Source: an uncultured Lachnospiraceae bacterium
Lineage (GTDB): Bacteria > Bacillota > Clostridia > Lachnospirales > Lachnospiraceae
Reading direction: 5' to 3'
Assembly: GCA_902770965.1 (NCBI GenBank)
Contig: CACXUY010000014.1
Coordinates: 1,841 to 65,840, forward strand
Length of the DNA stretch: 64,000 nucleotides
How positions within the stretch are numbered: position 1 is the stretch's first letter; each line of letters starts with the position of its first letter. Under the pieces are notes generated by a model. The model was not told where the DNA came from. It searched no databases and saw nothing but the letters and a program-made list of their open reading frames with translations. The position numbers and the translations under genes were made by a program. Below are positions 8,124-63,970 of this stretch, one piece after another.

Positions 8124-8695
8124 TGAGATGCTTTTCTTTGATGAAGTGCTGATAGGTATCGAGGTTCATGTTGTCTATAAGAAGAAAAAATCAAGGACGC
8201 CAGGTTCTTGTATGCGTTCGAGGTTGCGAAAACGGTCGCGGCATAAGAGGTATCTTATCTGGCAAATGCCAGAAAGAAGGGGACATTTTTCCCGGACAGC
8301 TACGCAAAGAAAAAGCAGGTGTTCGGTGTAATTGTCCTTGAATGAGATCAGGACCTCGAACCTTAAACGGCATATCAATGCTTCTATAGTGCCTGCGGCG
8401 GATCGCGGAAATACGCATCGCAAAGCGGTTTCGCCACCGCGCATTTTGCGGCGAGTGCACGTAAACACTCATATCGAATGATTGGGGAAACGCTGAAATG
8501 AAGGCGCATAATCTTGGGGATACATTGATCAGCGTTTCCCCACGCCATCGATTGAAAAGACTGATGGCTGTTTTGGATAATAATATTCAGGCGTAAGCTG
8601 CACAAGGCAAATGAAATGCGGCATCAATATAGTACAGTATAGCCCAAAAGAAGTCTGAAAGCAGCCCGGATAAAGCCTGCCGGGGGAGCATATTT

Positions 8696-9334: not shown

Positions 9335-9367
9335 ACAGAGGTTAATCCTTTCGTTGATATTATGTTC

Positions 9368-9411
9368 GTAACTATTCAGCATCCCGAGTTTGGGGTGCTG
9401 AATAGTTGCTA
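9368..9411. repeat. short copy of dispersed inverted-repeat element (family 1)
   Basis: GTAACTATTCAGCATCCCGAGTTTGGGGTGCTGAATAGTTGC. Its termini match the ends of the ~75-bp copies at 14740, 33131, 33201 and 50835. Confidence 0.75.
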
Positions 9412-9433
9412 GCATTTTAGGAGAAGGGAACAG

Positions 9434-35317: not shown

Positions 35318-35368
35318 CTTGGACGCATTTCCTACTTGCGTCGAGACAATTTAATATTTATAACATGT

Positions 35369-35440
35369 GGTTCCTTGGTCAAGCGGTTAAGACGCCGCCC
35401 TCTCACGGCGGAAACAGGGGTTCGATTCCCCTAGGGACTA
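35369..35440 (+). tRNA. tRNA-Glu (anticodon CTC)
   Basis: The acceptor stem GGTTCCT pairs with AGGGACT (two G-U pairs). The anticodon stem-loop is CCGCC-CTCTCAC-GGCGG, and the T arm is AGGGGTTCGATTCCCCT. Confidence 0.85.
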
Positions 35441-35441
35441 T
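35419..35441 (+). repeat. left copy of 23-bp exact direct repeat (tRNA-Glu 3' end; att-like)
   Basis: GGTTCGATTCCCCTAGGGACTAT is identical to 47088-47110. Imperfect similarity continues for about 60 nt more, through a terminator-like hairpin, on both sides. Confidence 0.9.
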
Positions 35442-35999
35442 TGAAAAAGACCTCTCATCGAAGGTCTTCTTTTTTTGTTTTGGAAGGGGTGAATCAGGGA
35501 AACAGGGGAGTCAGGGTGAGACACGTGGACTCAGGCGAGTCCACATGACTCTTTTGAACATATGTAGTAGAAATATAGGATGGAAGCTGATTCGCGGATC
35601 ATAGACTGTTTTGCAAGCGGCGGTTTGGTTTTTGTTGATACTTATTCCCAGACGTAAGTGCGGGCTCTTTGCAAGGCGTATGTTTACATTAGGTTCATGG
35701 CATCTTATCATTTTAGTATGATATATTGTGTATGAATCACGACATCGCATGAATATATCTTGTAATTAGACGCTCTGTTTGCTATGTTTATTTGGTCAGA
35801 CACGTCGAGACTGATTTGTCAGTAACCCCCCATGCAGGATGCTGCCCCACCATGCATATAAGCCTGGGGGGGTAATGTCCATGCGGGGCATGCACACGGC
35901 CGCGCAGAGGAAGGTGCCGGCTGAATGCGACGCACGGTCGGCGCAGCTCGCCGCAAGCGGCGAGTTTATATAGTAATCATGAACAAGGAGACTTGGAAG

Positions 36000-37031
36000 A
36001 TGTCAAAAATAACACCCACTCCATATCAGGATATTTATTCCGAAATCAAAGATGCGCTATTACTTTCCCGTAACCAGGCCTATAGTGCGGTCAATTTTGC
36101 AATGGTTCAGGCATACTGGCACATTGGGCGAATCATCGTGGAGCACGAGCAGAACGGAAGCCTTCGTTCCGAATATGGAAAGGGTGTGTTGAAGGATGTG
36201 TCAGAACGGCTTCAACAGGAGTTTGGCGATGGGTTTTCTGTTCGGAATCTGCAACAGATGAAAAAGTTCTACGCTACTTTTCCAAATGCGAACGCACTGC
36301 GTACGCAATTGACCTGGACACATTATCGCGCTTTGCTTCGCGTGGAGGATGACATAGCGCGAAACTGGTATATAGAGGAGTGCATTAAATCCGGATGGTC
36401 GAGTCGACAGCTGGAGCGGCAGATTTCCACGTTATACTACGACCGACTTTTGGCTAGCAGGGACAAGTCTTCTGTAATTGCGGAAGCGGGAGAATTGATG
36501 AAACCGCTTGAGGCAGAGAGCTTTATCAAAGACCCTTACGTGTTGGACTTCCTCGATTTGAAAAACTACCCTGCCCTGCGCGAGTCCGATCTGGAACAGG
36601 CATTGATCGACAAATTGCAGGAGTTTCTGCTGGAGCTGGGACGCGGATTCTGCTTTATTGCAAGACAGAAACTCATGCGGTATGAAGACGAGGACTTCTA
36701 TCTTGATCTTGTCTTTTATCACAGCATTTTGAAATGCCACGTACTGATCGATCTGAAAATCGGAAAGCTGACACATGCCGACGTTGGCCAAATGGACAGT
36801 TACATCCGTATGTTTGATGCGCTATACAAAAACGATGACGACAATCCTACGATTGGGATTATCCTTTGTTCTCAGAAAAATGAGGCTATTGTTAAGTATT
36901 CGGTGTTGAACGATGCGAAACAAGTCTTTGCTTCTAAGTACCGTCTGACGTTGCCCACAGCAGAGGAATTGCAACGGGAGATTGAGGAAGAAAGACGAAA
37001 AATCGAGGAAAGAGGGGAATCGAGAAACTGA
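36000..37031 (+). CDS. YhcG-family (DUF1016) PD-(D/E)XK nuclease
   Basis: AVNFAMVQAYWHIGRIIVEHEQNG, LTWTHYRALL, GRGFCFIARQ and DLVFYHSILKCHVLIDLKIGK are typical of YhcG/DUF1016. ATG 36000 follows AAGGAG. Confidence 0.75.
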   Translation: MSKITPTPYQDIYSEIKDALLLSRNQAYSAVNFAMVQAYWHIGRIIVEHEQNGSLRSEYGKGVLKDVSERLQQEFGDGFSVRNLQQMKKFYATFPNANALRTQLTWTHYRALLRVEDDIARNWYIEECIKSGWSSRQLERQISTLYYDRLLASRDKSSVIAEAGELMKPLEAESFIKDPYVLDFLDLKNYPALRESDLEQALIDKLQEFLLELGRGFCFIARQKLMRYEDEDFYLDLVFYHSILKCHVLIDLKIGKLTHADVGQMDSYIRMFDALYKNDDDNPTIGIILCSQKNEAIVKYSVLNDAKQVFASKYRLTLPTAEELQREIEEERRKIEERGESRN

Positions 37032-37528: not shown

Positions 37529-39217
37529 ATGGAAGAAAAAACGGTTTACAGTTATCACACCTTTCTATATCCCTTTTTGTGGAATGACATAGATGGGAAT
37601 CACAGTATTGATGTCTTTGAGACAAAATTAAAACTGGAAAGTGCAGGCTGGTCTCAGGATGATATGGTTTCTAAAAAGAATGGTGAAATTAATCTGACCA
37701 GTGTTGTCAATAATGAGTCCCAAGATGAACAACGACTGGATTATCAGACATTTCAGTATTTTAATCCGGCTGCAAGAAAAGCTCTCTTTCGGGAAGATGG
37801 AGAAATAGTGCATGGTTGGAAGTATCGTTCGGGTGACGTACATAATAAAGCAGAATATAAGATATTTGAAAAAGGAAGCGATAATCCATATGTTTTGAAT
37901 ATAAATCATATCCGTCTCAGACTTTTCAATACCGGTGTAGGGATACTTGTGTTTGAGTTGGAGTACCCTATGCCGAACGAGGGAGTAAAAAAAGCACGGC
38001 AGGATATCAGAGCGATCAACGAGCTTGGTAGAAGAGTTTTTCCGGAGTTCCTTCCTGAACAGCCAGAAATTTTCATGGGAAGCCTTTTTGCCACGAGAAT
38101 AGAAATTGTTGTTGATGAGAATCATTTTGAAGAGAATTTGTACTGTCGTTCGGGGTTGCATGGAGAACAAAGCTACCTTAGAGATCCGTTGCATAAGCAG
38201 AGTTTTTTATTTACGCTTTTAGGCTATGATAGCAATAGTACAATCTCTATAACACCAGCTGTGGATGATAGGATGTTTGTCTGCTGCTGTATAATGGATC
38301 CGGATTATACAGAACATTTTTTATATCGTTCGTATCAGGATCCGTCTTTAGAGAAGACCGAATTATCGGAAGAAGAAAAGAAATTTAGTATGCAAAATAA
38401 GCAGCCTATGTTTCTGGATAACTGGGATGTTGGTACGGAATTATATGCATTGACCAATATTGATTATAAAGATAGCAGTTGTCAGAATCGGGTGATGCTG
38501 AACCAATACTTTGAAGATCAACTATATCTTAGGTGGACTGAGATCGGGTATAGCACGATTTATTCGGTGACAAACCATTCGATGATATGTTTGACCGGAG
38601 ATAGGAAATATGTTACTGCGCCAGTTGTTAATCCTTTCTTGATTGAATATATCCAACTTTGTATATTGGTTCTTGCTCAGAGGGCATCTTTGATAGCCTT
38701 TGATAGCAGAATTACAGAGGCTATTTCCAGGGATGACGAGAAAGAGATTATCACTGACAAGTTGTTAACATTATCCAAAGATTTTGCTAAGTTTCAGGGG
38801 CAAATCCTGATTCCTGAGGCTACTCCTCAAATACAAGGTATAGAGCTTTATGGAAAGCTGCAGAGGATGCTCTTTATTGAAAAACTTCAAAATAACGTAC
38901 TCAGTCAGATGAGCAGTCTTTCTGGAATGGCTCAATATGAGCAGGAACGAAGACAGCAAAAAATGGATAAAGATCTTGAAGAACAACAATTTAAGACAGG
39001 CTTATTCTTCAACGTGATAGCAGCGGTTACGATAGTTTCGGTTCTGATTGATTTATTTAATTATATAGTCTGGTTTGTTTCTCCTCATGATGATATATGT
39101 CTTCCATCATGGTGGATAATGATGATTATTGATGTTATATTGATTTTAACTGTCGCGGGAAGAAGTATAAGCTTGATCCATGATAAAAAGAAGAAGGAGA
39201 AAGAGAAGGATGAGTGA
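37529..39217 (+). CDS. corA: CorA-like membrane protein, candidate type III CRISPR accessory effector
   Basis: 562 aa. It has a large soluble N-terminal region and a predicted long helical segment (KLQNNVLSQMSSLSGMAQYEQERRQQKMDKDLEEQQ). Two TM helices sit at the extreme C-terminus (GLFFNVIAAVTIVSVLIDLFNYIVWFV; WWIMMIIDVILILTVAGRSISLI), followed by a KKKKEKEK tail. There is no GMN motif. Its stop overlaps the cmr1 start. Confidence 0.6.
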   Translation: MEEKTVYSYHTFLYPFLWNDIDGNHSIDVFETKLKLESAGWSQDDMVSKKNGEINLTSVVNNESQDEQRLDYQTFQYFNPAARKALFREDGEIVHGWKYRSGDVHNKAEYKIFEKGSDNPYVLNINHIRLRLFNTGVGILVFELEYPMPNEGVKKARQDIRAINELGRRVFPEFLPEQPEIFMGSLFATRIEIVVDENHFEENLYCRSGLHGEQSYLRDPLHKQSFLFTLLGYDSNSTISITPAVDDRMFVCCCIMDPDYTEHFLYRSYQDPSLEKTELSEEEKKFSMQNKQPMFLDNWDVGTELYALTNIDYKDSSCQNRVMLNQYFEDQLYLRWTEIGYSTIYSVTNHSMICLTGDRKYVTAPVVNPFLIEYIQLCILVLAQRASLIAFDSRITEAISRDDEKEIITDKLLTLSKDFAKFQGQILIPEATPQIQGIELYGKLQRMLFIEKLQNNVLSQMSSLSGMAQYEQERRQQKMDKDLEEQQFKTGLFFNVIAAVTIVSVLIDLFNYIVWFVSPHDDICLPSWWIMMIIDVILILTVAGRSISLIHDKKKKEKEKDE

Positions 39218-40556
39218 TCATCATAATTCACCATATTGTAGGTTAGTAGAACTCCGGCAGTATACTCCTTTATTACATTTTCAGGGAGATACAGAGGGAG
39301 CTTGTTTGCGTGCATCAGAAGTGAAGCCAAAGCTGGATCGTTTCGTGTGGGATTATCTTAACAGAAATCAAATCAGCATTCCGGAAAGTTGGCAGCTTAA
39401 GAACATGGATGAAGAGTCTCCATATGAACCAGCTTTACGATACAAGATGCGGTTTATGGGAAATATGAAGAAAAGAGAAGATAAGAAACATCTTCTTTAT
39501 TTTGCGCAGAACATGGACGGTACTTCAATAGCTTTAGAAAGCTTATCTAATACCAGGATGACGATTATTTCTCTGGTCAAAGATCGTTTGGGAACAGACT
39601 GTCCACTTTACAATAATAAATATTTGGAGAATCCCACTATCTGTGAGTTGATTGACGCATTACTTCCCGCATTCTTCTGTCTGCATTGTTTTGGAACAAG
39701 AAATGGAAAAGGCTTTGGAAGCTTTGAAATCGTAGGAAGTACTATAAGCGATGAGGAGATTGATTACTATAAAGAACGAGATTGTATGAAAGTATACCGT
39801 TTGTCATCCAGTCGAAATTCATATTCGGACATGAATTGTCTGGATGATATTTATGTCCTTTCGGGTATGATGAAGGGCGGTTTTAATCGTCCATATTATA
39901 AAGGAGATATTCAAAAATATCTATGGAGAGAGAACATAGGTTCAGAAAAATCGTTTATAAAGCAAGAGATATTTCCTAATGAGACGGTAAACAACACAGG
40001 AGAATCATTATTGGACTGGTATAATAATGATCTTTGTGGGGGAAGAAATCATAGACCTCAAAAGGTATATAAAAACAATCAATTTCTCCGCGCCATGTTA
40101 GGATTAACTGATCACTATGATTATTTTTTCTACAATAGAAATTTGAAAAAACGCGTAGTTAAAACGATATGGGTAAAGTCGAAAAACAGTGAAATAACAC
40201 GTTTTGCGAATCCTATCCGCTTTAAGCCATGTTCTGGAGGTTTTCGTATACTTGTATACAGGATACCGAATGCGATGTTAAACAAGTCGCAAGCATCGGA
40301 AGACAATGGTTTTGAGTTTTCTTTTAGTTCCAAGCAATATACGCTTTATACACCAGAATTTTTTGATCTTGTGGCTTTTATGCATTATTTCCTTTCTCCG
40401 TTTCACGATAATAAATCGAGAAAGTCGCATAATTGGGAAGCGTTAAAAGATAAAAGTTATCAGCTGTATTATGGCAAAAATAATAGCCAAACTCGGTTTT
40501 TTAATGATACCCTTGATAATCTCCGGATCGCGTATGGATGGGAGGAATCCATATGA
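39210..40556 (+). CDS. cmr1: type III-B RAMP protein Cmr1 (divergent, long)
   Basis: It is the first gene of a cmr1-cas10-cmr3-4-5-6 order. It has YTPLLHFQGD...LRASEVKPKLDRF, the G-rich loop FGTRNGKGFGSF, and RFANPIRFKP. ATG 39210 lies inside ATGAGTGA, overlapping the upstream stop. Confidence 0.6.
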   Translation: MSDHHNSPYCRLVELRQYTPLLHFQGDTEGACLRASEVKPKLDRFVWDYLNRNQISIPESWQLKNMDEESPYEPALRYKMRFMGNMKKREDKKHLLYFAQNMDGTSIALESLSNTRMTIISLVKDRLGTDCPLYNNKYLENPTICELIDALLPAFFCLHCFGTRNGKGFGSFEIVGSTISDEEIDYYKERDCMKVYRLSSSRNSYSDMNCLDDIYVLSGMMKGGFNRPYYKGDIQKYLWRENIGSEKSFIKQEIFPNETVNNTGESLLDWYNNDLCGGRNHRPQKVYKNNQFLRAMLGLTDHYDYFFYNRNLKKRVVKTIWVKSKNSEITRFANPIRFKPCSGGFRILVYRIPNAMLNKSQASEDNGFEFSFSSKQYTLYTPEFFDLVAFMHYFLSPFHDNKSRKSHNWEALKDKSYQLYYGKNNSQTRFFNDTLDNLRIAYGWEESI

Positions 40557-42199
40557 ATAAACAGTATGTAGGTGTTACCATAGGCCCCATTACCGATACA
40601 TTGATGCTCACTTCCTCGCCTGCCGGTCTTTGGGGTGCAAGTTATCTCTTCTCGTGGATTAGCCGTAGATTGATTCATTATTTAGTGGTTGATTATAAGG
40701 TTGAGCAGAGTCGATTTGTAGCCCCCTTTTTCTCAGTGAAGAATAACGAGATCTTTCTTCCTGAAGAAAATGATATCGATTATGAGGATATGTGGAAAAA
40801 GGGAATTGGCCTGTTTCATGATCGTATAATATTCTGTTCAGATAGTTTAACAAACCCACTTGAAATCGTTGCGAAGGCCAGAGAAGCTGTCATTTGCGAA
40901 CTCACAGAAGAAATAGCTAGAATAGAATCTAAAACAGAATCTACGACAAATAAGAAGGATATATATGAGTGGCTGGATGGTTATATACGGATTTATGCTG
41001 TTCAAAGGGAGAGCGCATCTCCACTACTAGATTTGGGTGCTGATCTAAGTGCAATGGAACTGGAACCTCATTTTTTCGGGCTTGAAAAGTATAATCATCT
41101 TTTGGGTATTTTTGAAAATATAATTCCTTGCGATGAAAATCATTCACATATGGAGCTGGGGATGAAAAATAAGCTGATGAAGCAATTCCTGCTCTCTCAT
41201 CGTGATGAAGATGCCTGGGTGCTTTATGATAATAATCATATGATAAAAGATTTACAGGATATCGCAGCGAATGGTGCAAATCCTGTAATGAAACACACTC
41301 AGTATTATGCTGTGCTGAAATCAGACGGAGACAGTATGAGCAAGATACTGGAAAACTTGATTGACGATGAAGAAGTCCGAACCTATAGTAAAAAATGCCT
41401 TGGTTTCTGCGCAAAGGCTGCTCAGCAGATATATAAATACGGCGGTGTGCCTCTTTATGCGGGTGGTGACGACCTGTTGGCTCTTTTGCCGTTAACCGGC
41501 ACGCACCCTGAAAATCATGAGAAATGTACCCTTTTTGGCTTAATAAATTATATACGCACATTGTTTAATGGGGTGTTTAAAGAGGATAGAGAAAGATTTA
41601 ATGGCATGCCGACGATATCTTTTGGTATCTCAATACAATTCTATAAAAGCCCGTTGTTTGAGGCACTGGAGCGAGCAGATGGATTACTGTATCGTGCTAA
41701 ATTGGGATTAAAAGATGCATGCTATCTGCATCTGCAAAAACATAGTGGACAATCTGTATTGTTTACCGAAGAACGTCTTAATTACGTTAATGAAGAAGGC
41801 GACAATTTGATTTCCGCTTTGGACAAGTTGTTAACAAATACGAGAATCGGTGATATCAATAATGACGATGCTGTTCTTTTTCTGTCTGGTCTAGGATTTA
41901 CATTGGAACAATATAAAAATTTGTTTTACCTGGCTATCGAAAAGACAAAGCGAACAGATGCGATTTTAGAGAATCTGTTCGCTAATCTCTTTAGCAATGT
42001 GGATCAAAAACAATTTGAACCTTATATAACCGAAATAAAAAAATTGACAGTGCAGCTCATCAGAAAGAATAGTGAGAATGAAGCAAAGGCAAAAAGAAGG
42101 CAGAATGAAGCAAATCAGGGCGAAGGAGTTATGTCTCAGCTTCAGGCCATAATTCGACTATTGCATTTTATGAGAGAGGGGGGAGCAGAGAAAGAATGA
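40553..42199 (+). CDS. cas10: Cas10/Cmr2 large subunit lacking the HD domain
   Basis: It starts directly with the Cmr2 block YVGVTIGPITDTL...GLWGASYLFSWI. It has YYAVLKSDGDSMSKIL, the cyclase motif LYAGGDDLLALLP (GGDD at 41462-41473), and ISFGISIQFYKSPLFEALERADGLLYRAK. It is only ~548 aa with no HD-type N-terminus. Confidence 0.8.
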   Translation: MNKQYVGVTIGPITDTLMLTSSPAGLWGASYLFSWISRRLIHYLVVDYKVEQSRFVAPFFSVKNNEIFLPEENDIDYEDMWKKGIGLFHDRIIFCSDSLTNPLEIVAKAREAVICELTEEIARIESKTESTTNKKDIYEWLDGYIRIYAVQRESASPLLDLGADLSAMELEPHFFGLEKYNHLLGIFENIIPCDENHSHMELGMKNKLMKQFLLSHRDEDAWVLYDNNHMIKDLQDIAANGANPVMKHTQYYAVLKSDGDSMSKILENLIDDEEVRTYSKKCLGFCAKAAQQIYKYGGVPLYAGGDDLLALLPLTGTHPENHEKCTLFGLINYIRTLFNGVFKEDRERFNGMPTISFGISIQFYKSPLFEALERADGLLYRAKLGLKDACYLHLQKHSGQSVLFTEERLNYVNEEGDNLISALDKLLTNTRIGDINNDDAVLFLSGLGFTLEQYKNLFYLAIEKTKRTDAILENLFANLFSNVDQKQFEPYITEIKKLTVQLIRKNSENEAKAKRRQNEANQGEGVMSQLQAIIRLLHFMREGGAEKE

Positions 42200-43368
42200 A
42201 ATATTGGAAAATAACCCTAAAACCTTTAGATGCTTATTTCCTGGGAGGGGAGCGAAATGTATTTTATCAAAACAATCCGGTACAACGTTCCGAACGAAGA
42301 CCTTATTTTATTCGTTCCAATCATATGATTTCACAGTCCGCTGCGTTTGGAGTACTACGATATCTAGGTATTCATAGCCCAAATGCTAATTATCGTTTGT
42401 CGTCTGAGGATATAAAAAATATAGGAGACAGAAGCTTTAGCATCACACGAAACCAACAAGGATACGGTCGCATATGCAGTATTTCCCCCGTGTTTCTATG
42501 TGATCAGGAAGGTAAACGGTACGTAGCTGCTCCGTGTAATCGTGTTAAGGCTGATTTTGAATGCTGCTATGATAAAGAGCATCCAAAGATGCCGTTTGTT
42601 TCCTTTGAAGCCTTCCGACGTGTAATAACCATGGATGGTACACGGTATTTACCATCTGAGTATAATGAGAAAAGGGCTTGTGACCCATCAGATCTGCTAT
42701 GCTTAGAAACAGGTGACGTCATATCATCCCCTTTTTCTACTCAGATACGTACGGGAATCAATAGAGAAAGTCAAAAGCTAAAGCAAAATGGAAATCTGTC
42801 GGACGATAATCCTAGTGGTTTCTTTAAGAAGGAATATATTGTTCTGGATAGAGACTATTCCTTCATGTTTTATGCTGAAACAGAAGATGGTTTTTTTATT
42901 CACCGTGATACAGTGGTTTACATAGGACAGGGAAGAACGCCTTTTTCTGCTCATGCAGAAGATGCACAGAAAAAGTGGGATATTGATTTACCGGTTTGTT
43001 GCCGACCGTCAGTTGGAGCAAAATGGGAAAGCGCAACGGTAATTTCTGACATGTTCTTTGATGGGCATATAAAAGAACTAAAAAGGCTGTGCTCATTGAT
43101 GATTTCATCTATCAGGGATCATCGGTGTATGGAAACAAATTACTCGGCAGAAAATGCGGGCAACCGATATAGTAAAAAGGAAGCATTAAAACTGATACCT
43201 GCCGGTAGTGTGTTTTTGTTTATGGGAGACGATAACGGTAAAGAACCGAAGGATCAGCTTTGTCATTTTCGAAATACGCTGATAAAAACCCGTTATTGGG
43301 ATAGCGCTTTGCGCGCCGGCTTCAATTATGTACTATATAGCGATATTCAACAGAATGGAGGACAATGA
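42196..43368 (+). CDS. cmr3: type III-B RAMP protein Cmr3
   Basis: ITLKPLDAYFLGGERNVF...SQSAAFGVLRY (Cmr3 N-terminal pattern), ISPVFL, and its position after cas10. It has an ATGA overlap with cas10. Confidence 0.7.
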   Translation: MKYWKITLKPLDAYFLGGERNVFYQNNPVQRSERRPYFIRSNHMISQSAAFGVLRYLGIHSPNANYRLSSEDIKNIGDRSFSITRNQQGYGRICSISPVFLCDQEGKRYVAAPCNRVKADFECCYDKEHPKMPFVSFEAFRRVITMDGTRYLPSEYNEKRACDPSDLLCLETGDVISSPFSTQIRTGINRESQKLKQNGNLSDDNPSGFFKKEYIVLDRDYSFMFYAETEDGFFIHRDTVVYIGQGRTPFSAHAEDAQKKWDIDLPVCCRPSVGAKWESATVISDMFFDGHIKELKRLCSLMISSIRDHRCMETNYSAENAGNRYSKKEALKLIPAGSVFLFMGDDNGKEPKDQLCHFRNTLIKTRYWDSALRAGFNYVLYSDIQQNGGQ

Positions 43369-44171
43369 TTATGTCAAATATACTGTATAGGTTAACATGC
43401 CTTACCAACCTTCATATGGGGAGCGGAGATATAAACTATGATGTGATAGACTTGGAAGTAGAGCGCGATCCGGTATTAATGGAGCCAACAATGAATGCTA
43501 GCGGTGTCAAAGGTGCCCTTCGGGATTATTGTAAGAAAACTATGTCTGATGATGATTTGCTGTTTGTATTTGGCGGCAAAGCAAAAAATGATGATGATAA
43601 CGGAGCTCAAAGAAATAATCAAGGGACACAGCAGGGGTTTTACAATTTTTTTTCCGGAGATATGTTGGCTCGTCCTATAAGAATATCTGAAGGAGAAGGG
43701 GCATATCTGCTTGCTACAACGCCAGATATTCTCAAAACGCTTTTGCGTAAATTACATGCGTTTGGGTTTTGCATCGGCTATAATGAGAATGATATTCCGG
43801 CTCTGCCGCAAGATGGTTCTGTACTATCCCCGGTAAATATCATAAGTGTTGAAGGACAAAAAGTTACAAATGGAACGTGCGCATATTTATCTGCTCTTCT
43901 TGGATCTGACCATTGGGTTTTGATGAGCAGTCAACAGTTAAGGGATATTGATCTGCCGGTTTTAGCTCACAATGTATTGGAGGATGGTATCAGCAAGAAT
44001 CTATGGTATGAGCAGGTTGTTCCTCATGAGAGTGTTTTCTTGCTGATCATATCAGGACTGGAAAACGACGATAGATTAAGTAAGACGTTAACTAAAAAGT
44101 GCATGGTTCAGTTTGGCGCGGGAGCTACCACTGGAAACGGTTATACCTTGATGGAACAACTGGAGGTATAA
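43365..44171 (+). CDS. cmr4: type III-B backbone RAMP Cmr4
   Basis: CLTNLHMGSGD...VIDLEVERDPV...ASGVKGALRDY (RAMP motif with candidate catalytic Asp) and the C-terminal G-rich loop FGAGATTGNGYT. Confidence 0.75.
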   Translation: MIMSNILYRLTCLTNLHMGSGDINYDVIDLEVERDPVLMEPTMNASGVKGALRDYCKKTMSDDDLLFVFGGKAKNDDDNGAQRNNQGTQQGFYNFFSGDMLARPIRISEGEGAYLLATTPDILKTLLRKLHAFGFCIGYNENDIPALPQDGSVLSPVNIISVEGQKVTNGTCAYLSALLGSDHWVLMSSQQLRDIDLPVLAHNVLEDGISKNLWYEQVVPHESVFLLIISGLENDDRLSKTLTKKCMVQFGAGATTGNGYTLMEQLEV

Positions 44172-44175
44172 ACAC

Positions 44176-44601
44176 ATGAACAAGAAATTAGTGAATGAAC
44201 TCATTCCTTTAGCATATCAGGAATTAGATTCAGTAGGTATTGCTCAGAACGGTGAGATCTCAAAGGGCTTTCGTGGCCAGATTGCTTCTTTTGGTGCAGC
44301 AATAGCCACAGGGTCTTTGCTGGCGGCATCGGCATTCTTTAATGATCAGGGCGGCTCTAAGAGTGAACGCCATAAGCTAATGGTGGCCATTAACAATATG
44401 TTGGCTTACAAGGATATGGAGAATGGTTGCTTAGTACAAAATCAAGGAAATACCTTATTTGATACTGTAAAAATATGGATGAAGGCTCACAATGGTTCTG
44501 ATAGGGAGATTAAAGAAAAAGTGCTTTCGTGTGCCATAGCCTTAAAACTTGCCATGAATCTTTACTCACTGAAACCAGAGAAAAAGAATAAAAAAGGCTA
44601 A
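44176..44601 (+). CDS. cmr5: type III-B small subunit Cmr5
   Basis: 141 aa and helical. FRGQIASFGAAIATGSLLAASAFF resembles the Cmr5 core. It lies between cmr4 and cmr6. Confidence 0.65.
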   Translation: MNKKLVNELIPLAYQELDSVGIAQNGEISKGFRGQIASFGAAIATGSLLAASAFFNDQGGSKSERHKLMVAINNMLAYKDMENGCLVQNQGNTLFDTVKIWMKAHNGSDREIKEKVLSCAIALKLAMNLYSLKPEKKNKKG

Positions 44602-44622: not shown

Positions 44623-45540
44623 TTGAACCAGCATTATGAATTTTGGGTAAAATACTATGAGAGGTTGATAGAATCCGATACTGCATTTGCTGAAGCGCTT
44701 AATATTAATAATGAAAATTTGACGAAACGCATTTGGAAAACAGGAAATCGGGAAATCCTTCCGGGATGCAATGAAGAACCCTTCTCTGGCTGCAAACATC
44801 TACGATTGGAGGTGAATTATCCTGGCTTGTTAGTAGGCATAGGAAACGCTCATGACAGTGGGAAGAAATTTGAAGATAAAGACAAAACCGACAGGACAAA
44901 AAAGAAAGATAAGAAAAAGGATACACCAGAAGAAATAAAACTGGGAATACTATTAGACTCAGTAACCGGTTTGCCGTTTTTACCTGGAAGCATGTTGAAG
45001 GGGATATTGCGCTCGGCATTCTTATATAATGTTGATTATATTAAAGATTTGCTTCAGTATATAGATTCTTCTTTATTGCTGACCGCCGAACAGGTAGAAG
45101 AATTAGAACTGGATATTTTCGGACATCAACACCCTTGCCATAATTATGAAACCGATATCGAAGCAGGGACAGGAAGAGATGTTTTTTTTGATGTTTATCC
45201 AATTCAGCCGGATGGGAAAAGTCATCTGATTGGTATAGAAAACATCACATCTCACCGTGCTAAAAACCGTAAGCTCGATGGCTTAACAAAACTCAATCCA
45301 CTTACGCTGCTAAAGATTATGCCGGGAGTAGTGCTTTTGTTTAGGTTTTATCTGAATGATACTGATTTAAAAGATGGAATCAGGATTACAGCAAATCATA
45401 AATTAAATCTTTTTAAACAGATACTGCTTGATTTGGGCGCTGGTGCAAAGACAAATGTGGGCTTTGGCGTGTTGACAGATACGAAAAACCCTGAGGAAAC
45501 GGACAAGTATTATTATCTGGAAGAAATGCACAGAGATTAA
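44623..45540 (+). CDS. cmr6: type III-B RAMP protein Cmr6
   Basis: GLPFLPGSMLKGILRSAF, DIFGH, DVFFDVYP and the G-rich loop LGAGAKTNVGFGVL. The TTG start is 7 nt after GGAGGAGG. Confidence 0.75.
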   Translation: MNQHYEFWVKYYERLIESDTAFAEALNINNENLTKRIWKTGNREILPGCNEEPFSGCKHLRLEVNYPGLLVGIGNAHDSGKKFEDKDKTDRTKKKDKKKDTPEEIKLGILLDSVTGLPFLPGSMLKGILRSAFLYNVDYIKDLLQYIDSSLLLTAEQVEELELDIFGHQHPCHNYETDIEAGTGRDVFFDVYPIQPDGKSHLIGIENITSHRAKNRKLDGLTKLNPLTLLKIMPGVVLLFRFYLNDTDLKDGIRITANHKLNLFKQILLDLGAGAKTNVGFGVLTDTKNPEETDKYYYLEEMHRD

Positions 45541-45564
45541 GAACTAAAATCATCATTTAGTAGA

Positions 45565-45594
45565 AACCTCCTGGTCCATCTCAGGAGGTTTTTT
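45565..45594. terminator. bidirectional terminator between cmr6 and the convergent DUF3791 gene
   Basis: AACCTCCTG (45565-45573) pairs with CAGGAGGTT (45582-45590), then TTTT. The same hairpin recurs at ~48962-48990. Confidence 0.65.
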
Positions 45595-45799
45595 CTGATA
45601 CTCTCTTATAATAATCCCTAAAATAATCCGGTCCCTCTGCCCAAAGTGCTGAATCGAAATCGAGCAGGCATTCGTAAGCTTTTGATTCAAGGACTTCTTT
45701 TCTGATTTCGTCAATTGGTTTTCCACTTTCGGCGGCCATATCTTCAATAGCAAGGGCTAATGTCAGAGCAGCGCATGTATTCATTGTTTCATATGACAT
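45581..45799 (-). CDS. DUF3791-like small protein
   Basis: 72 aa. It lies downstream of, and overlaps, a DUF3990-like gene, which is the triad arrangement I recall from Clostridia. Confidence 0.5.
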   Translation of the reverse strand: MSYETMNTCAALTLALAIEDMAAESGKPIDEIRKEVLESKAYECLLDFDSALWAEGPDYFRDYYKRVSEKTS

Positions 45800-46367
45800 A
45801 TTTCCTCGCCTCCTGAAACATCAGACAGCTTATAACTTTTTCAGTCAAGAAGCAGAACTGATCTTCAAGCTTATCAGGCAAAAGCCTTTTGATTGTATCA
45901 TTTATCGCTTCGTCAGATTCTATATCTCCATACAATTCGCCAAGATAAGCTGTGATGGTTGTATTTGTTTTATCATTTGCAACTTTTCCGATAATGATTT
46001 CCGCACTAAATATTCTGGGGTCAATTCCTGGTTTTAGTTGCGTGGCAAGATGTTCTCGTCTGTTCTGCGCGATAAACCAGAGCCATTCTTTATTAGTTGT
46101 AGGAAATTCATAAAAATCTATTCCCTCTTTCGGTGCTTTGAATCTAAAGGATAAAACAAAACCAAAGTCTTGGTCCATCGGCAAATCGCCAGTATTTACT
46201 GCTTTTCGTATGGATGATTTAATAAAAAGCCGGGCTTGATTTAGGTTCGAAGTCAGATAAAAGCCCTTACCAAAATCCTTACCTTTATTGCACATCGAAA
46301 GGTCGATTGTCTCAACAGGGGCATAGCTTCCGTGAAACAGGAGCATGCCGTCTCTTAACTTGGTCAT
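45789..46367 (-). CDS. DUF3990-domain protein
   Basis: MTKLRDGMLLFHGSYAPVETIDLS...GKDFGKGFYLTS is a typical DUF3990 N-terminus. It has an ATGA overlap with the upstream DUF3791 gene. Confidence 0.6.
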   Translation of the reverse strand: MTKLRDGMLLFHGSYAPVETIDLSMCNKGKDFGKGFYLTSNLNQARLFIKSSIRKAVNTGDLPMDQDFGFVLSFRFKAPKEGIDFYEFPTTNKEWLWFIAQNRREHLATQLKPGIDPRIFSAEIIIGKVANDKTNTTITAYLGELYGDIESDEAINDTIKRLLPDKLEDQFCFLTEKVISCLMFQEARKYVI

Positions 46368-46576
46368 ACACATGCCCCCTTTTTCTGTAGAATGCGAACG
46401 ATACCATTGAGAATATACTCGTCACCGTTCATGTGAAGAACATCATAGCACTCTTCGATATATTTCCAGATGCCATAGTTTTCAAATAAGCGATTAGCGT
46501 CCGCAGGTTTCAAATTAAATTTACGAACGAAATCACTAAAAACCCTTGCTTCCATAAACAGTATCTCATTAACCAT
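46364..46576 (-). CDS. DUF3791-like small protein
   Basis: The start is MVNEILFMEARVFSDFVRKF, preceded by GGAGGA. The ORF-track N-terminal extension has no support. Confidence 0.55.
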   Translation of the reverse strand: MVNEILFMEARVFSDFVRKFNLKPADANRLFENYGIWKYIEECYDVLHMNGDEYILNGIVRILQKKGACV

Positions 46577-47087
46577 GACCGTATCCTCCGTAGAAAAGCA
46601 TAACATATTTATCTGATAACATAAAGAACGATTTTTACTGTTTACTAGAAGGTATTCCGGTATGAAGGGAAAAAAGGTGGTTTTCAGCGGGATCAAAGGA
46701 TCCTGCCGGTTTTCCGGAGTTGACCGTACCGCTCTTGCGTTGCTCGCCGTAGGCGAGTTGCTCCACATTGGAAAAAATAGCAGCTTTAGATTTGGACGTT
46801 ATACCATGCTGAGTCCTCGAGACTAGCTGGGCGAATCAAGGGCGAGCGGACGGCAGGGACTGTTCTGTTGTCCGCTTTTAAATCTGATACAAGATACAGG
46901 ATGTCCGCAAATAACACCAGAATATTGGTGGATTCTTGGTGAACATGGTGCCAATATATCAATAAAAAAACTAATCAGGTTAGAAAAAGTATAGCATGAC
47001 CGTGCAAAACATGGGCAGAAATTACTATATAGTTTGACAAATCGATATACAGAACAAAATAATTCAAAATTGTTCTGCAAATGCAAT

Positions 47088-47110
47088 GGTTCGATTCCCC
47101 TAGGGACTAT
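47088..47110 (+). repeat. right copy of 23-bp exact direct repeat (partial tRNA-Glu 3' end; att-like)
   Basis: GGTTCGATTCCCCTAGGGACTAT has no tRNA 5' half upstream. It is followed by a hairpin (AAAAAGACCTCTCAGCAGAGGTCTTTTT) similar to the one after the intact tRNA-Glu. Confidence 0.9.
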
Positions 47111-47388
47111 CTAAAGAAAAAGACCTCTCAGCAGAGGTCTTTTTCATTTTCGGAGGAGGGGTGAGTAATCCGGGCTCCGGGTACCAGCAATCCGCAAATG
47201 GATATCGATATACCGGAGTATGATATCGGGCGATTCAAAACATTCAGTCCGCCTAAGCGTACTTTTTATTCGCCAATGATACCATCCTGACATAGAATGA
47301 TGCCAGGCAATCAGTGCCTGCATTCAATCCTGAATCGCCTTATCAAGGATTGAGTGTTGAAAATAGAGGAAGTTCACATGTACCGGCA

Positions 47389-47438: not shown

Positions 47439-48011
47439 ATGATGACCATCCGAGAGAAATTAAAAGATAAAAACATGTCTGTATACCGGCTTGCCAAAGC
47501 TAGCGAGCTTCCCTATGCGACTGTAAACGATATTTGCAGCGGCAAAGCGCAGCTGGAAAAATGCAGCGCCGAAACGATCTATAAGATTGCCAAAGCACTG
47601 GACGTTCCCATGGAGGAACTGCTTGCCCCCTGCTTCCTCAAACGCAGCAGTTTTGAAAACTTCAAAAGCAATATCTGCCACCGAGTCAAAGAGCTGGGCG
47701 ATATAGACTTTCTTATCGAAACGCTGGAGAGCCATGACATCCGGACCTATTATGAGCGGAAATGGTATCCTGAAAGCCTTTACCTCCTTGCCATGCTGGA
47801 CTATATCAGCCGGGAAAATGATGTTCCCCTTGTCAGCGAATACGACGACATCAGGCGGTGCAGGCTGGAAAAACCGGTTTATCCGGCCAGTCTCCGGGCT
47901 GTTTCAGCGGCGGCCAGAAGCGACGCCGCGCTGAAAGAGGCAGAGAAAACGGCGATCCCGGAGTTTATGCGGTTTAACATTATAGAAAGCGAAGTGCGAA
48001 ATGTCATCTGA
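47439..48011 (+). CDS. XRE-family HTH protein (putative antitoxin/regulator)
   Basis: The N-terminal HTH reads MSVYRLAKASELPYATVNDICSGK...TIYKIAKALDVPMEELL. The stop overlaps the next start by 11 nt. Confidence 0.65.
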   Translation: MMTIREKLKDKNMSVYRLAKASELPYATVNDICSGKAQLEKCSAETIYKIAKALDVPMEELLAPCFLKRSSFENFKSNICHRVKELGDIDFLIETLESHDIRTYYERKWYPESLYLLAMLDYISRENDVPLVSEYDDIRRCRLEKPVYPASLRAVSAAARSDAALKEAEKTAIPEFMRFNIIESEVRNVI

Positions 48012-48774
48012 ACGCAGCGTTGAGTTTACAAAAGACAATATTGACATCTACTTGAAAGAGGTTGCGAAGGAATACCGGAAACAGGTTGGGAAGGGAATGC
48101 CCGCCGAACTGATCCTGATCGGCGGTGCTTCCGTCCTGATCAATTACGGATTCAGAAATATGACCACCGATATAGACGCCTTGATCCGGGCGGCTTCCAG
48201 CATGAAGGATGCGATTAGCAGGGTTGGTGATCGTTTTGGCCTTCCCACCGGCTGGCTGAACGCCGACTTCAAGAACACGGACTCCTACACCCCGAAGCTC
48301 GAAGAGTTTTCCTCCTATTACAGAACCTATTCCAACGTACTGTCAATCCGTACCGTGAAAGCGGAATATCTGATTGCCATGAAACTGCGATCCGGCAGAC
48401 AGTATAAGAGTGACCTGTCCGATGTGCTGGGCATTCTGGCGGAACATGAAAAAAGAGGAACGCCTATCACGATGGAGCAGATACGAAAAGCCGTGACTGA
48501 CCTGTACGGCGACTGGACATCTCTTTCGGATGTGTCTCAGGCGTTTATAGAAAATGTCATGGCGGACGGACGGTTTGAACAGCTTTATGTGCAGACGGCC
48601 CAGGGTGAGAAGGAAACGAAGGAACTTCTGATCCGGTTTGAGAAGGACTATCCGGGCGTAACGAAGGAGTCCAATGTGGACGCTATCGTCGGTAATCTTC
48701 AAAAGAAAGCGGATAAAGCTTCCATCCTTGCCCAGCTTCGGCAAAAGAAGTCCAAAGGCATGGAGACAATTTAG
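48001..48774 (+). CDS. Pol-beta-fold nucleotidyltransferase-like protein (DUF6036/AbiEii-like), putative toxin
   Basis: LILIGGASVLINYGFRNMTTDIDAL matches the GG/GS-x(n)-DxD nucleotidyltransferase pattern. AEYLIAMKLRSGRQYKSDLSD is typical of this family. It is translationally coupled to the HTH gene. Confidence 0.55.
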   Translation: MSSERSVEFTKDNIDIYLKEVAKEYRKQVGKGMPAELILIGGASVLINYGFRNMTTDIDALIRAASSMKDAISRVGDRFGLPTGWLNADFKNTDSYTPKLEEFSSYYRTYSNVLSIRTVKAEYLIAMKLRSGRQYKSDLSDVLGILAEHEKRGTPITMEQIRKAVTDLYGDWTSLSDVSQAFIENVMADGRFEQLYVQTAQGEKETKELLIRFEKDYPGVTKESNVDAIVGNLQKKADKASILAQLRQKKSKGMETI

Positions 48775-48957: not shown

Positions 48958-49527
48958 GAAAAACCTCCTGATCCATCTCAGGAGGTTTTTTCTGATACCT
49001 TCTTATAGTAATCTCTAAAATAATCCGGTCCTTCTGCCCAAAGCGCTGAATCGAAATCGAGCAGGCATTCGTAAGCTTTTGATTCAAGAACGTCTTTTCT
49101 GATTTAGTCAATTGTTTTTCCGCTTTCGGCAGCCATGTCTTCAATAGCAAGGGTTAATGTCAAAGCAGCGCATGTGCTCATTGCGTCATATGACATATTT
49201 TTTCGCCTCCTCAAACATCAGACAACTGATAGCCTTTTCAGTCAAGAAGCAGAACTGATCTTCAAGCTTATCAGGCAAAAACCTTTTAATTGTAGTTTCC
49301 GTGAAACAGGAGCATGCCGTCTCTTAACTTGGTCATACACATGCCCCCTTTTTCTGTAGAATGCGAACGATATCATTGAGAATATACTCGTCACAGTTCA
49401 TGTGAAGAACATCATAGCACTCTTCGATATATTTCCAGATGCCATAGTTTTCAAATAAGCGATTAGCGTCCGTAGGTTTCAAATTAAACTTACGAACAAA
49501 ATCACTAAAAACCCTTGCTTCCATTTC
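48958..49527 (-). pseudogene. decayed second copy of the DUF3791-DUF3990-DUF3791 cassette
   Basis: It is collinear with 45561-46560 at high identity. The DUF3990 body is deleted, with a junction near 49295 leaving only MTKLRDGMLLFHG. The distal DUF3791 is disrupted, while the proximal DUF3791 (49333-49524) is nearly intact. Confidence 0.75.
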
Positions 49528-52890: not shown

Positions 52891-53582
52891 TTGACGCGCT
52901 TCGGCGATATACTAACACCGAAGGCGTGGGACGGAGGAAAGAACATGCACAATACCACGAATACCGCACCCTACACGATAAAGCCAGCAGATATAGCAGC
53001 CGAGGTCAACGGCACAACGTCCGCAGTCGGCAGCGCAACCGCTGCCACGACTGGCAGCGCAACCACCATAGCCAATAGCACCACGGTCACAGGTACAAGC
53101 ATTGCGCATAAGGGCGTGACCACTGCCGCAGTTGGCGGCAGTTCCAAGGTGAACGAAAAGATCAAGGACAGGCTGTTTAAGTTCGTTTTCGGCAATCCGG
53201 ACAACAAAGAGTGGACGCTGAGTCTCTTGATGTAGCGATAAATGAAATGCCGGATGATTTTGTCATCAAGCCTTTCATCATTCTTCACAGAGCGGAGGTA
53301 AAGCACATGTGTATCACGGAATATGACGAGGAACGAACTCTGGCGGAAATGAAAGAAGACGGCAGAAAAGAAGGAAGAGCAGAAGGAAGAGAAGAAGGAA
53401 GAGCAGAAGGAAGAGCAGAAGGAAGAGCAGAAGGAAGAGCAGAAGGAAGAGCAGAACTCGCTGAATTGATATCCGTGCTTCTTGATCAGGGCAGGATAGA
53501 GGATGCCAAGCGTCTGGCCAAGGATATAGAGTTCAGGGACGGTCTTTTAGCGGAGTTCGGCATAGGCACTGCAAACGGTTAA
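52891..53582 (+). pseudogene. Rpn-family (PD-(D/E)XK, transposase_31-like) gene with an internal deletion or frameshift
   Basis: The N-terminal fragment has KDRLFKFVFGNPDNKEWTLSLL. The second frame (53211-53582) has the typical C-terminal tail with EGRAEGR repeats and LISVLLDQGRIEDAKRLA. The nuclease core is missing. Confidence 0.45.
53370..53453 (+). repeat. 7 x 12-bp tandem repeat (GAAGGAAGAGCA) encoding (EGRA)n
   Basis: Direct reading; one unit differs by one base (GAA for GCA). Confidence 0.9.
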
Positions 53583-56823: not shown

Positions 56824-56830
56824 CATTATA

Positions 56831-56990
56831 TGAAGGATGGCTATCTTTGAAGGCTGGTCATCTATGAAGGCTGGCCATCTATAGAAATTTGATCATCTAT
56901 GGCAGCTGGCCATCTATAGAAATTTTGTCATCTATGAAGGCTGGCCATCTATAGAAATCTGCTCATCTATGAGGACTGATTATCTATGAT
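56831..56990. repeat. complex tandem repeat (~35-bp units built on CATCTAT cores) between permease and ATPase genes
   Basis: AAGGCTGGCCATCTATAGAAATTTGATCATCTATG-like units occur three times, with partial units on both sides. Confidence 0.85.
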
Positions 56991-63145: not shown

Positions 63146-63817
63146 ATGGTATGGGTTGATAACGCATCAAAGAAAGCTACGGATTTTATTGATCATTCCT
63201 GTGCCGCCTTCACTGAAGCGCTGGCATCGAAAGCACCGGTCCCGGGCGGCGGAGGCGCGTCGTCGCTGGTAGCCGCAATAGGGATAGCCTTGGGCAGCAT
63301 GGTCGGAAGCCTTACTCTGGGCAAGAAGAAATACGCTGATGTCCAGAACGATATAGAGGTGTTGATGGGTGAGGCGGAAGAGCTGAGGAAGGCTTTCCTG
63401 AATTTGGTCGGTCGCGATGCCGAGGTCTTCGAACCCCTTTCGAGAGCTTATGCTCTGCCAAAGGATACAGAAGAGCAGCTGGCTGAGAGAGACAGGGTCA
63501 TGGAAGAAGCCTTGGCGGATGCATGCCTTGTGCCGCTTGAGATCATGGAGAAATGCTGCCGCGCGATAGAGGTCATAGCCGGTTTTGCTCAAAAGGGTTC
63601 TGCGATAGCTATCAGCGATGCGGGAGTCGCCGCAGCCTGCTGCCGCGGGGCGCTTGAAGGCGCGAGCCTGAATGTTTTTATCAACACCAAGGCGATGAAG
63701 AACCGCGAGACCGCGGAATCATTTAACGAGAGAGCAGACGCTATGCTGGATAAATATGTCCCAATGGCGGAAGAGATATTTATAAATGTTCGAGGCAAAC
63801 TTAAGGAACAAAGATAA
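63146..63817 (+). CDS. cyclodeaminase/cyclohydrolase-family protein (FtcD C-terminal / FchA-like)
   Basis: FTEALASKAPVPGGGGASSLVAAIGIALGSMVGSLT is the family signature. ATG 63146 follows GAGGAGG. The ORF-track N-terminal extension reads through the repeat. Confidence 0.75.
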   Translation: MVWVDNASKKATDFIDHSCAAFTEALASKAPVPGGGGASSLVAAIGIALGSMVGSLTLGKKKYADVQNDIEVLMGEAEELRKAFLNLVGRDAEVFEPLSRAYALPKDTEEQLAERDRVMEEALADACLVPLEIMEKCCRAIEVIAGFAQKGSAIAISDAGVAAACCRGALEGASLNVFINTKAMKNRETAESFNERADAMLDKYVPMAEEIFINVRGKLKEQR

Positions 63818-63970
63818 AAGCAGGTACAGAACGAAGGTAAAAGCAGGTACAGAACGAAGATAACAGTAAGTACGGAACGAAGATAACAGTAAGTACGGAA
63901 TGAAGATAACAGTAAGTACGGAATGAAGATAACAGAAAGTACGGAACGAAGATAACAGCAAGCAGAGTGT
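63813..63970 (+). repeat. ~7 x 23-bp tandem repeat (GATAACAGTAAGTACGGAACGAA)
   Basis: Units start at 63859, 63882, 63905, 63928 and 63951, with two more divergent units upstream. The repeat begins at the stop codon of the preceding gene, and the units are contiguous with no spacers. Confidence 0.85.

Follow-up and report, generated by a model that had tools for sequence, protein, structure and literature searches.

What is a protein with the membrane topology of a CorA magnesium channel doing at the head of a CRISPR operon, and why does it lack the motif by which such channels are recognized? The question arises from a 64,000-nucleotide stretch of DNA of an uncultured Lachnospiraceae bacterium (contig CACXUY010000014.1, positions 1,841 to 65,840), hereafter the window, in which a gene at 37529-39217 encodes such a protein, here called the effector. 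A first-pass annotation, made from the sequence alone, had proposed a signal-gated pore with an N-terminal sensor. We find that the effector is neither a Mg2+ channel nor a new system; it is a diverged member of a known effector family. With a probability of roughly 0.75 we read it as a type III-B CRISPR CorA membrane effector that is switched by SAM-AMP, belongs to a Clostridial branch without the Gly-Met-Asn (GMN) motif, and lies in an incomplete locus. Its ligand, oligomeric state and pore we infer.

A CorA-family effector at the head of a type III-B operon

The open reading frame (ORF) and the residues first quoted for the two transmembrane (TM) helices, the loop and the tail translate exactly. 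An identical protein is present in ENA, and the next-closest relatives are only ~50% identical. Homologues scored at E<=1e-3 number 503, nearly all of them unnamed; a relative was found in 272 species genomes, and an exhaustive profile search gave 3,537 clusters at 50% identity. The identical ENA protein, the homologues and the clusters together show that the gene is not a chance ORF. In the phage and plasmid collections relatives are nearly absent, with four plasmid records and one phage contig.

Over its full length the effector belongs with the CRISPR-associated CorA proteins, and among them with the type III-B CorA-1 group. The PADLOC CorA-like profile PDLC01174 matches it at E=5.1e-65, aligning effector residues 3-551 with profile positions 2-441 of 446, and a second one, PDLC01043, matches at E=7.3e-61; Pfam and NCBIfam assign it to no family. 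The setting is that of the family as well, since 60-66 of 78 related loci have cmr1-6 alongside their CorA homologue. In the window, corA and cmr1-6 lie on the same strand with overlapping or abutting frames and form a type III-B cassette (Table 1). Each of the seven genes is an open frame of full length that retains its catalytic and signature residues. The real start of cmr1 may be the ATG at 39210, overlapping the corA stop, and that of cas10 is probably M6 (40553).

The Cas10 is of the short form, with no HD domain detected, and its GGDD motif at residues 309-312 (D311/D312) is intact. Across 62 CorA-linked Cas10s, D95 is conserved in 98% and E174 in 100%; their columns correspond to positions 71-75 and 146-162 in the Bacteroidota Cas10s. 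Mutation of D70 or E151 in the Bacteroides fragilis Cas10 abolishes SAM-AMP synthesis (PMC10600005), and judging by position D95 and E174 would be the matching residues. The Cmr6 of the window aligns to residues 1-283 of the 405 in its Ruminococcus counterpart (locus L001) and is without the S1-like C-terminal extension of its closest relatives. The idea that it is truncated was not supported: no remnant follows downstream, and family lengths range from 205 to 454 residues.

The effector itself has a soluble part of ~490 residues and a long stalk helix that is continuous with TM1; beyond TM1 come a loop of 10 residues, TM2 and a basic tail. The sequence YSYHTFLYPFLW starts at effector residue 7. 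A Kyte-Doolittle scan shows two strong hydrophobic segments, both C-terminal (windows centered on 497-509 and 531-542), and a third, marginal peak at 373-375 that is barely over the cutoff. An AlphaFold2 monomer model built on 104 homologues (predicted local distance difference test [pLDDT] score 90.6, predicted TM-score 0.85) has alpha/beta domains as far as residue ~358; there follow helices 359-400, 405-425 and 435-447, a single 68-residue helix 450-517 that comprises the charged stalk and TM1, and a helix 524-561. Scan and model thus agree with the two C-terminal TM helices, the short loop and the charged helical stretch before TM1 that were first read from the sequence. The basic tail is a family feature: R or K is commonest at positions 552 and 554-557, and K is the commonest non-gap residue at 553. 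Together with the acidic loop, and under the positive-inside rule, it suggests that both termini lie in the cytoplasm.

The soluble part had been described as very large. It is large, and this is the family norm: median length is 552 residues in 79 genome-encoded homologues and 543.5 in 236 retrieved proteins. The whole effector was also scanned for G-M-N, G-[MVI]-N, DHH and GGGH, and none occurs anywhere in it, so that both the missing GMN and the missing DHH/GGGH motif of the cytoplasmic part had been correctly noted; nor does it carry a fused DHH or DEDD domain.

Four blocks of the soluble part stand out among the relatives. The best conserved is YSYHTFLYPF near the N terminus, with a mean top-residue frequency of 0.83; over 104 sequences H10 and F12 never vary, and S8, Y9, T11, P15 and F16 are each kept in 90% or more. 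Two further blocks hold the residues that matter in B. fragilis. Supplementary Fig. 10 of Chi et al. 2023 (PMC10600005), which was machine-read, has its R152R153 label above INQ(Y/F)GR(K/R) and its D219D220 label above P-I-I-D-D-R-M-F-V; from these label positions R152/R153 equate with R168/R169 of the effector and D219/D220 with D246/D247. Among the 79 homologues R168 is found in all 79 and R169 in 77, D246 in 78, D247 in 77, and R248 and M249 in every one. The fourth block lies directly before the stalk; its Q436 is invariant, and E430, T432, Q434, G437, E439 and Y441 are at least 90% conserved. The invariant or near-invariant residues of the soluble part are H10, F12, E143, E145, N164, G167, R168, R169, D246, D247, R248, M249, R335, W336, Q384 and R385.

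Conservation is distributed unevenly along the protein. Mean identity to the window effector is 37.6% over residues 1-358 and 40.8% over residues 359-487, and it drops to 16.5% in the TM module, where TM2 is conserved solely as hydrophobic; an insert at about residues 262-300 is also poorly conserved. A conserved soluble part on a drifting TM module is what would be expected of a specific ligand sensor on a generic membrane element.

The best-studied relative is the type III-B CorA of B. fragilis (PMC10600005). The two proteins belong to one family over their full length and share their layout (a large soluble N-terminal part, a stalk, a basic tail and, between these, two TM helices), the RR and DD motifs, the acidic pair in the Cas10 that goes with each of them, and the role of an ancillary gene in a cmr1-6 system whose Cas10 lacks HD. 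They differ in that the window effector is ~70 residues longer than the 491-residue row of the published alignment, partly through the 262-300 insert, is only ~25-30% identical to the Bacteroidota members, has lost GMN, has a branch-specific S-x3-D in TM1, and has no NrN gene adjacent in its locus.

Table 1. Features of the corA-cmr cassette and its surroundings, in window coordinates
Feature	Position	Strand	Description and evidence
corA-like effector gene	37529..39217	+	562 residues plus stop; first gene of operon; ORF and translation
N-terminal signature YSYHTFLYPF	37547..37576	+	residues 7-16, strand beta-1 of soluble domain
G167-R168-R169	38027..38035	+	equivalent of B. fragilis CorA R152/R153
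D246-D247-R248-M249	38264..38275	+	D246/D247 equivalent of B. fragilis CorA D219/D220
E-A-T-P-Q-I-Q-G-I-E-L-Y motif	38816..38851	+	residues 430-441, directly before stalk helix
Charged stalk helix	38876..38998	+	residues 450-490, runs on into TM1; AlphaFold2 and C-terminal models
TM1 GLFFNVIAAVTIVSVLIDLFNYIVWFV	38999..39079	+	residues 491-517; hydropathy
Acidic outer loop SPHDDICLPS	39080..39109	+	residues 518-527; translation; 518-523 non-helical in AlphaFold2 model
TM2 WWIMMIIDVILILTVAGRSISLI	39110..39178	+	residues 528-550; hydropathy; helix 524-561
Basic C-terminal tail HDKKKKEKEKDE	39179..39214	+	residues 551-562
cmr1	39180..40556	+	PADLOC Cmr1 E=7e-57, match from residue 23
cas10/cmr2	40538..42199	+	Pfam Cas10-Cmr2_palm2 E=8.5e-23; TIGR02577 above cutoff
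cmr3	42196..43368	+	PADLOC Cmr3 E=6.7e-20
cmr4	43365..44171	+	TIGR02580 93 bits vs. cutoff 87
cmr5	44176..44601	+	PADLOC Cmr5 E=6.5e-39
cmr6	44623..45540	+	305 residues; TIGR01898 76.6 bits
PDC-M13 candidate defense module	45564..46555	-	72-residue gene, DUF3990, DUF3791; Pfam and PADLOC PDC-M13A/B/C
cas6 remnant	46620..46823	+	last ~62 codons only; stop codons directly upstream
YhcG/DUF1016 PD-(D/E)xK nuclease gene	35925..37031	+	Pfam YhcG_C E=1.2e-57; PADLOC PDC-S02 E=2.3e-144
tRNA-Glu	35368-35441		3' end is part of left att-like repeat
Left att-like repeat	35419..35476	+	tRNA-Glu 3' end and terminator hairpin
Right att-like repeat	47088..47149	+	partial tRNA-Glu 3' end copy and hairpin

CorA ancestry and the loss of GMN

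The effector shares the general build of the Thermotoga maritima CorA and the other PF01544 channels: a cytoplasmic domain, a stalk helix leading into TM1, a short loop, TM2 and a basic C terminus. It differs from these CorA/MIT Mg2+ channels in lacking the GMN filter and any Pfam match, in a soluble part about twice as large, and in a gene context that is immune rather than one of ion homeostasis. PF01544 does not match the effector even at E<=10. To our knowledge, CRISPR CorA proteins are still without a solved structure.

A Foldseek search with the full model placed CorA first. The nine best matches are all Thermotoga CorA (E=2e-3 to 1.5e-2, TM-score 0.13-0.22); the next ranks hold a metallopeptidase and a few unrelated chains, scattered among cytosolic domains of ZntB and of CorA from E. 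coli, C. jejuni and M. jannaschii. Modeled on their own (pLDDT 88.8), residues 359-562 again have CorA as their top two matches (E~0.5, TM-score ~0.35), and CorA chains are nearly the only ones that cover this whole query. With a TM-score of just ~0.35 and a worse E-value for the C-terminal model alone, the fold evidence stays weak.

A more convincing case for CorA ancestry comes from sequence intermediates. Eight of the 79 genome-encoded homologues, from Desulfobacterota, Campylobacterota, Caldithrix and Caloranaerobacter, finish TM1 with F(F)GMN. Six of these eight, and one Bacteroidales protein, reach the Pfam CorA gathering score (33.9-47.3 bits vs. a cutoff of 27), with matches that span profile positions ~180-292, that is, the stalk end, TM1 and TM2. 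The homology of the GMN-bearing relatives to the window effector extends from end to end (tblastn E=1e-44 to 1e-47), and they align with it in register through the E-x-T-x-Q-x-Q-G-I-E-L-Y motif and the stalk. Because intermediates with GMN pass Pfam CorA, the effector is a true CorA derivative, homologous to the CorA/MIT channels, whose signature has worn away. A housekeeping CorA for profile-profile comparison was sought among the retrieved sequences, and none was found.

The first-pass annotation had taken the absence of GMN as a mark of CRISPR-associated CorA homologues in general. This does not hold: in Supplementary Fig. 10, 8 of 11 CorA-1 proteins finish TM1 with G-x-x-G-M-N, among them the 491-residue row whose numbering yields D219/D220 (PMC10600005). 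With these and the 8 of 79 homologues that keep the motif, its loss does not divide CRISPR CorAs from Mg2+ channels. At the GMN position the Bacteroidota homologues have GMI or GVV, and the Clostridial members have nothing similar; GMN loss marks the Clostridial branch and not CRISPR CorAs as a class. The residues LFNYIV had been placed at the GMN position; that is near the mark without being exact, as the in-register position is at about V514-W515-F516, uncertain by a few residues. With GMN lost, Mg2+-selective conduction is not expected. The branch has its own TM1 signature, Ser-x3-Asp, with S504 in 33 and D508 in 34 of the 40 closest homologues, a single turn of the helix apart and close to its outer end.

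An incomplete cassette in a defense island

The nearest relatives of the locus are Clostridial/Oscillospiraceae CorA-Cmr loci (L001/L005, from a Ruminococcus sp. metagenome-assembled genome, and L003, L007, L086 and L087), whose effectors are 41-50% identical to that of the window. They share the gene order corA-cmr1-cas10-cmr3-cmr4-cmr5-cmr6, the loss of GMN and a common TM1 S-A-x-x-D-L motif. In three of them (L001, L086 and L007) corA-cmr1-6 is followed by a DEDDh nuclease gene of 176-179 residues and then by an intact cas6; the order in L003 differs. Their Cmr6 often carries the S1-like extension, absent from the window, which retains only a remnant of a different type of Cas6.

This remnant was missed by a hidden Markov model (HMM) made from the common Cas6 cluster and was found by one of a second type (cluster c16), which matches at E=6e-14 over profile positions 256-318; PADLOC Cas6 (E=1.9e-12, profile 241-294 of 296) and Pfam PF10040 (26.3 bits vs. 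a cutoff of 25) match it as well. A minus-strand DUF3791 ORF at 46364-46768 overlaps it, and the N-terminal extension of this ORF is probably spurious. No CRISPR array is present in the 64-kb window, and a search for leftover repeats with 23 repeats of related loci, allowing up to 7 mismatches, found none there. Since cas6 is cut to 62 codons and there is no array, the system can act only if other parts of the genome provide CRISPR RNA (crRNA) and its processing; failing that, it is a remnant at an early stage. The first-pass annotation had overlooked this state of the locus, with no degrader, no array and no intact cas6.

We compared these gaps with those in 28 complete related loci, defined as having CorA and Cmr1-6 with flanks of 3 kb or more to either side. 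A cas6 gene is missing nearby from 13 of them and an array from 12, which makes supply in trans plausible. DEDD, NrN and lyase genes are all absent within 3-10 kb in 15 of the 28, which led us to reject the idea that lacking a degrader sets a locus apart. A regular expression for NrN based on DHH and GGGH had proved too strict, as CorA-linked NrN proteins carry IDHHN and GGGE, and HMMs were used instead.

The module that separates cmr6 from the cas6 remnant is PDC-M13, whose DUF3990 component looks toxin-like. It fills the gap exactly between the cmr6 stop (45540) and the remnant, from which it follows that the module took the place of the cassette's 3' end. A second copy, at 48961-49524, lies outside the island and is without ~460 nucleotides that make up most of DUF3990. 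PDC-M13 is found beside CorA in 0 of 83 related loci that were clustered, and here it looks like an insertion. It is of some interest as a possible partner, since a 2026 study of a type III-D2 system found that a VapBC-like toxin-antitoxin module, and not NrN, DEDD or lyase, is needed for defense, and proposed that it removes the messenger (PMC13294483). The III-D2 CorA locus and the window agree in having no NrN, DEDD or lyase gene and a toxin-antitoxin-like module beside the cas genes. They differ in CRISPR subtype, with a reported identity of 15% between the III-D2 and III-B proteins (PMC13294483), and in the module, which in the window is DUF3990/DUF3791 rather than VapBC, lies on the opposite strand and is repeated outside the island.

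The cassette and module are part of an island of ~11.7 kb, bracketed by att-like direct repeats of the tRNA-Glu 3' end and its terminator hairpin, with 23 identical bases followed by a near-identical hairpin. Its cargo is made up of defense genes only: the YhcG/PDC-S02 nuclease gene, a single-gene PADLOC candidate just upstream of corA, then corA-cmr1-6, PDC-M13 and what is left of cas6. The island showed no integrase. The G+C content is 0.36-0.41 in the cas cassette and PDC-M13 module, ~0.46 at the yhcG end and ~0.5-0.55 in the flanks. Just beyond the island's edge, in the interval that separates the two PDC-M13 copies, overlapping genes for a Cro/C1-type helix-turn-helix protein and a DUF6036 nucleotidyltransferase (47439-48774, plus strand) look like a toxin-antitoxin or defense pair. 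Elsewhere in the window there are tandem repeats at 53354-53456 (a purine-rich 12-nucleotide unit, ~7 copies), at 56829-56972 (a 35-nucleotide unit, 4 copies) and, near the window end, at 63805-63962 (a 23-nucleotide unit, ~7 copies).

The related loci offer several further arrangements. In L087 a single protein at the end of the corA-cmr1-6 operon (8406-9692, plus strand) fuses a DEDDh nuclease (residues 19-183) to Cas6 (residues 188-423). A DEDD nuclease domain is fused to the N terminus of CorA itself in 9 of the 236 retrieved proteins (P0052, P0054, P0055, P0064, P0066, P0086, P0096, P0098 and P0191), and in two more (P0087, at 9167-11383 of L033, and P0108) the CorA has a fused N-terminal TIM barrel of the endonuclease IV type (Pfam AP_endonuc_2), possibly a messenger-degrading domain of a fourth kind. 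A Card1/Can2-like CARF nuclease of ~412 residues, with a weak Pfam Card1_endonuc match, adjoins corA in 11 loci, including L003 (12308-13576), L004, L013, L023, L039, L050, L063, L064, L065 and L071, a hint that cyclic oligoadenylates serve as a further signal in some CorA-linked systems.

The gap between corA and cmr1 is occupied by one of two recurrent small proteins of unknown function: in some Clostridia by an 'FTRNNP' protein of ~160-210 residues (L013, L019, L049, L056 and L058, with a similar one in L022) and in some Bacteroidota, next to NrN, by a protein of ~180 residues with a membrane segment and a coiled coil (L052, L068, L069, L079 and L083). Two corA paralogues of 492 and 513 residues flank one cmr1-6 cassette in L012 (1311-2789 and 9096-10637). 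Five loci (L018, L026, L045, L060 and L080) have corA-family genes with no cmr gene within the fetched flanks of ~4-10 kb; in four of the five the proteins are 448-466 residues long and seemingly without a full TM pair. Homologues of this group may be sensors used outside CRISPR loci.

Mechanism, rival explanations and significance

The mechanism that we envisage is that described for B. fragilis, where the Cmr complex makes SAM-AMP and CorA binds it, and where immunity needs the CorA TM domain, R152/R153 and D219/D220, whose alanine mutants lose immunity (PMC10600005). A III-D2 CorA is required for messenger-dependent growth arrest (PMC13294483). In the Lachnospiraceae system, the Cmr complex would meet a matching foreign RNA, upon which the short HD-less Cas10 would join ATP and S-adenosyl-methionine into SAM-AMP. 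The messenger would bind the large cytoplasmic domain of CorA at a pocket that includes R168/R169 and D246/D247, the long stalk helix would relay the signal to the paired membrane helices of what is presumed to be a pentamer, and a breach or depolarization of the membrane would follow, so that the infected cell stops growing. The signal-gated effector with an N-terminal sensor that was first proposed fits this published model, the family, the operon, the RR and DD motifs and the conserved soluble part.

Several points weigh against this reading. There is no experiment on the window effector, which stands at ~25-30% identity to the Bacteroidota members, or on its Clostridial branch, and a pore has not been demonstrated for any member of the family. 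The similarity to CorA in Foldseek is weak (best E=2e-3, TM-score 0.13-0.36), and PDB sequence searches with the protein and with the 104-sequence profile gave nothing at E<=10. For the Cas10 residues, the correspondence with B. fragilis is read from conserved columns and nearby numbering and not from a direct alignment. HMMs for DEDD, NrN and SAM-AMP lyase matched nothing in the window even at E<=10, and neither did tblastn; the lyase HMM, whose seeds were machine-read from the supplement of PMC12255297, may be insensitive. In E. coli, the B. fragilis CorA gives immunity only alongside a degrading enzyme (PMC10600005, PMC12255297). With cas6 truncated and the array absent, present-day function is uncertain.

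It is conceivable, though we lean against it, that the family assignment is right and that this copy is an inactive remnant, in which the insertion that destroyed cas6 ended crRNA-guided activation and the intact genes reflect how recent the event was. The ~62 surviving cas6 codons, a repeated module placed exactly at the break, and a window with no array, no sequence like the related repeats, no degrader and no integrase seen on the island all speak for such a fate. On the other side are the seven full-length genes with their catalytic and signature residues, and the many complete relatives without cas6 or an array, for which another CRISPR locus could plausibly provide in trans. We think it unlikely that the effector senses a signal and has no CorA-like gated pore, its helices serving only as anchors and its toxicity having some other origin, for instance membrane disruption by clustering or an activity of the soluble domain. 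The drift of the TM module, the lost GMN and the weak fold match would suit an anchor, Chi et al. note that other mechanisms of membrane disruption are possible, and some 448-466-residue homologues outside cmr loci seemingly lack a complete TM pair. Against a mere anchor, removal of the TM domain abolishes immunity by the B. fragilis CorA (PMC10600005), the succession of stalk, TM1, loop, TM2 and basic tail has been kept, and the conserved S504 and D508 on TM1 suggest a functional lining.

Slightly less likely again is activation by some other Cas10 product, which could be SAM-AMP2, a cyclic oligoadenylate or a conjugate not yet described. In its favor, a gene for SAM-AMP degradation is missing from the locus, cA6 is the proposed signal of an Actinomyces CorA clade that has no degraders (PMC11229360), the III-D2 CorA responds to SAM-AMP as well as to SAM-AMP2 (PMC13294483), and the CARF nucleases beside CorA in 11 related loci hint at mixed signaling. 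However, the window system is type III-B and not of the Actinomyces type, the RR and DD motifs and the acidic pair of Cas10 are conserved in the Clostridial and Bacteroidota branches alike, and the nearest intact loci carry DEDD phosphodiesterases, which Chi et al. placed in the SAM-AMP CorA-1 group. More speculative still, and improbable in our view, is that the GMN-less branch forms a distinct kind of CorA effector with a ring of S504/D508 as its pore lining and no dedicated degrader, contrary to the 'obligate' pairing reported for B. fragilis, PDC-M13 taking on a reset or partner function as proposed for the VapBC-like module of III-D2 systems. That the effector is an ordinary CorA/MIT divalent-cation transporter, next to cas genes by chance, is scarcely credible. 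Its architecture is CorA-like and homologues on Arcobacter plasmids are annotated 'CorA family divalent cation transporter', but it has neither GMN nor a Pfam or NCBIfam CorA match, its ~450-residue soluble domain has invariant motifs of its own, its relatives keep company with cmr1-6, and it is the CRISPR-specific CorA-like profiles that recognize it.

These results leave the accepted view of SAM-AMP signaling as it was. For annotation, they mean that the gene is to be called a type III-B CRISPR effector and not a magnesium transporter, the name that some of its relatives bear in RefSeq. The finding that about half of the well-covered loci have no known degrader nearby fits uneasily with the strict requirement reported, and suggests that there are unrecognized degraders or that degraders are supplied in trans. 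The tRNA-flanked cassette, damaged by another defense module, is a concrete case of turnover within defense islands. Finally, GMN follows lineage, being kept in Campylobacterota, Desulfobacterota and most published CorA-1 proteins, degenerate in the Bacteroidota that were fetched, and lost in Clostridia, and this pattern bears on whether CRISPR effectors conduct ions in the manner of CorA.

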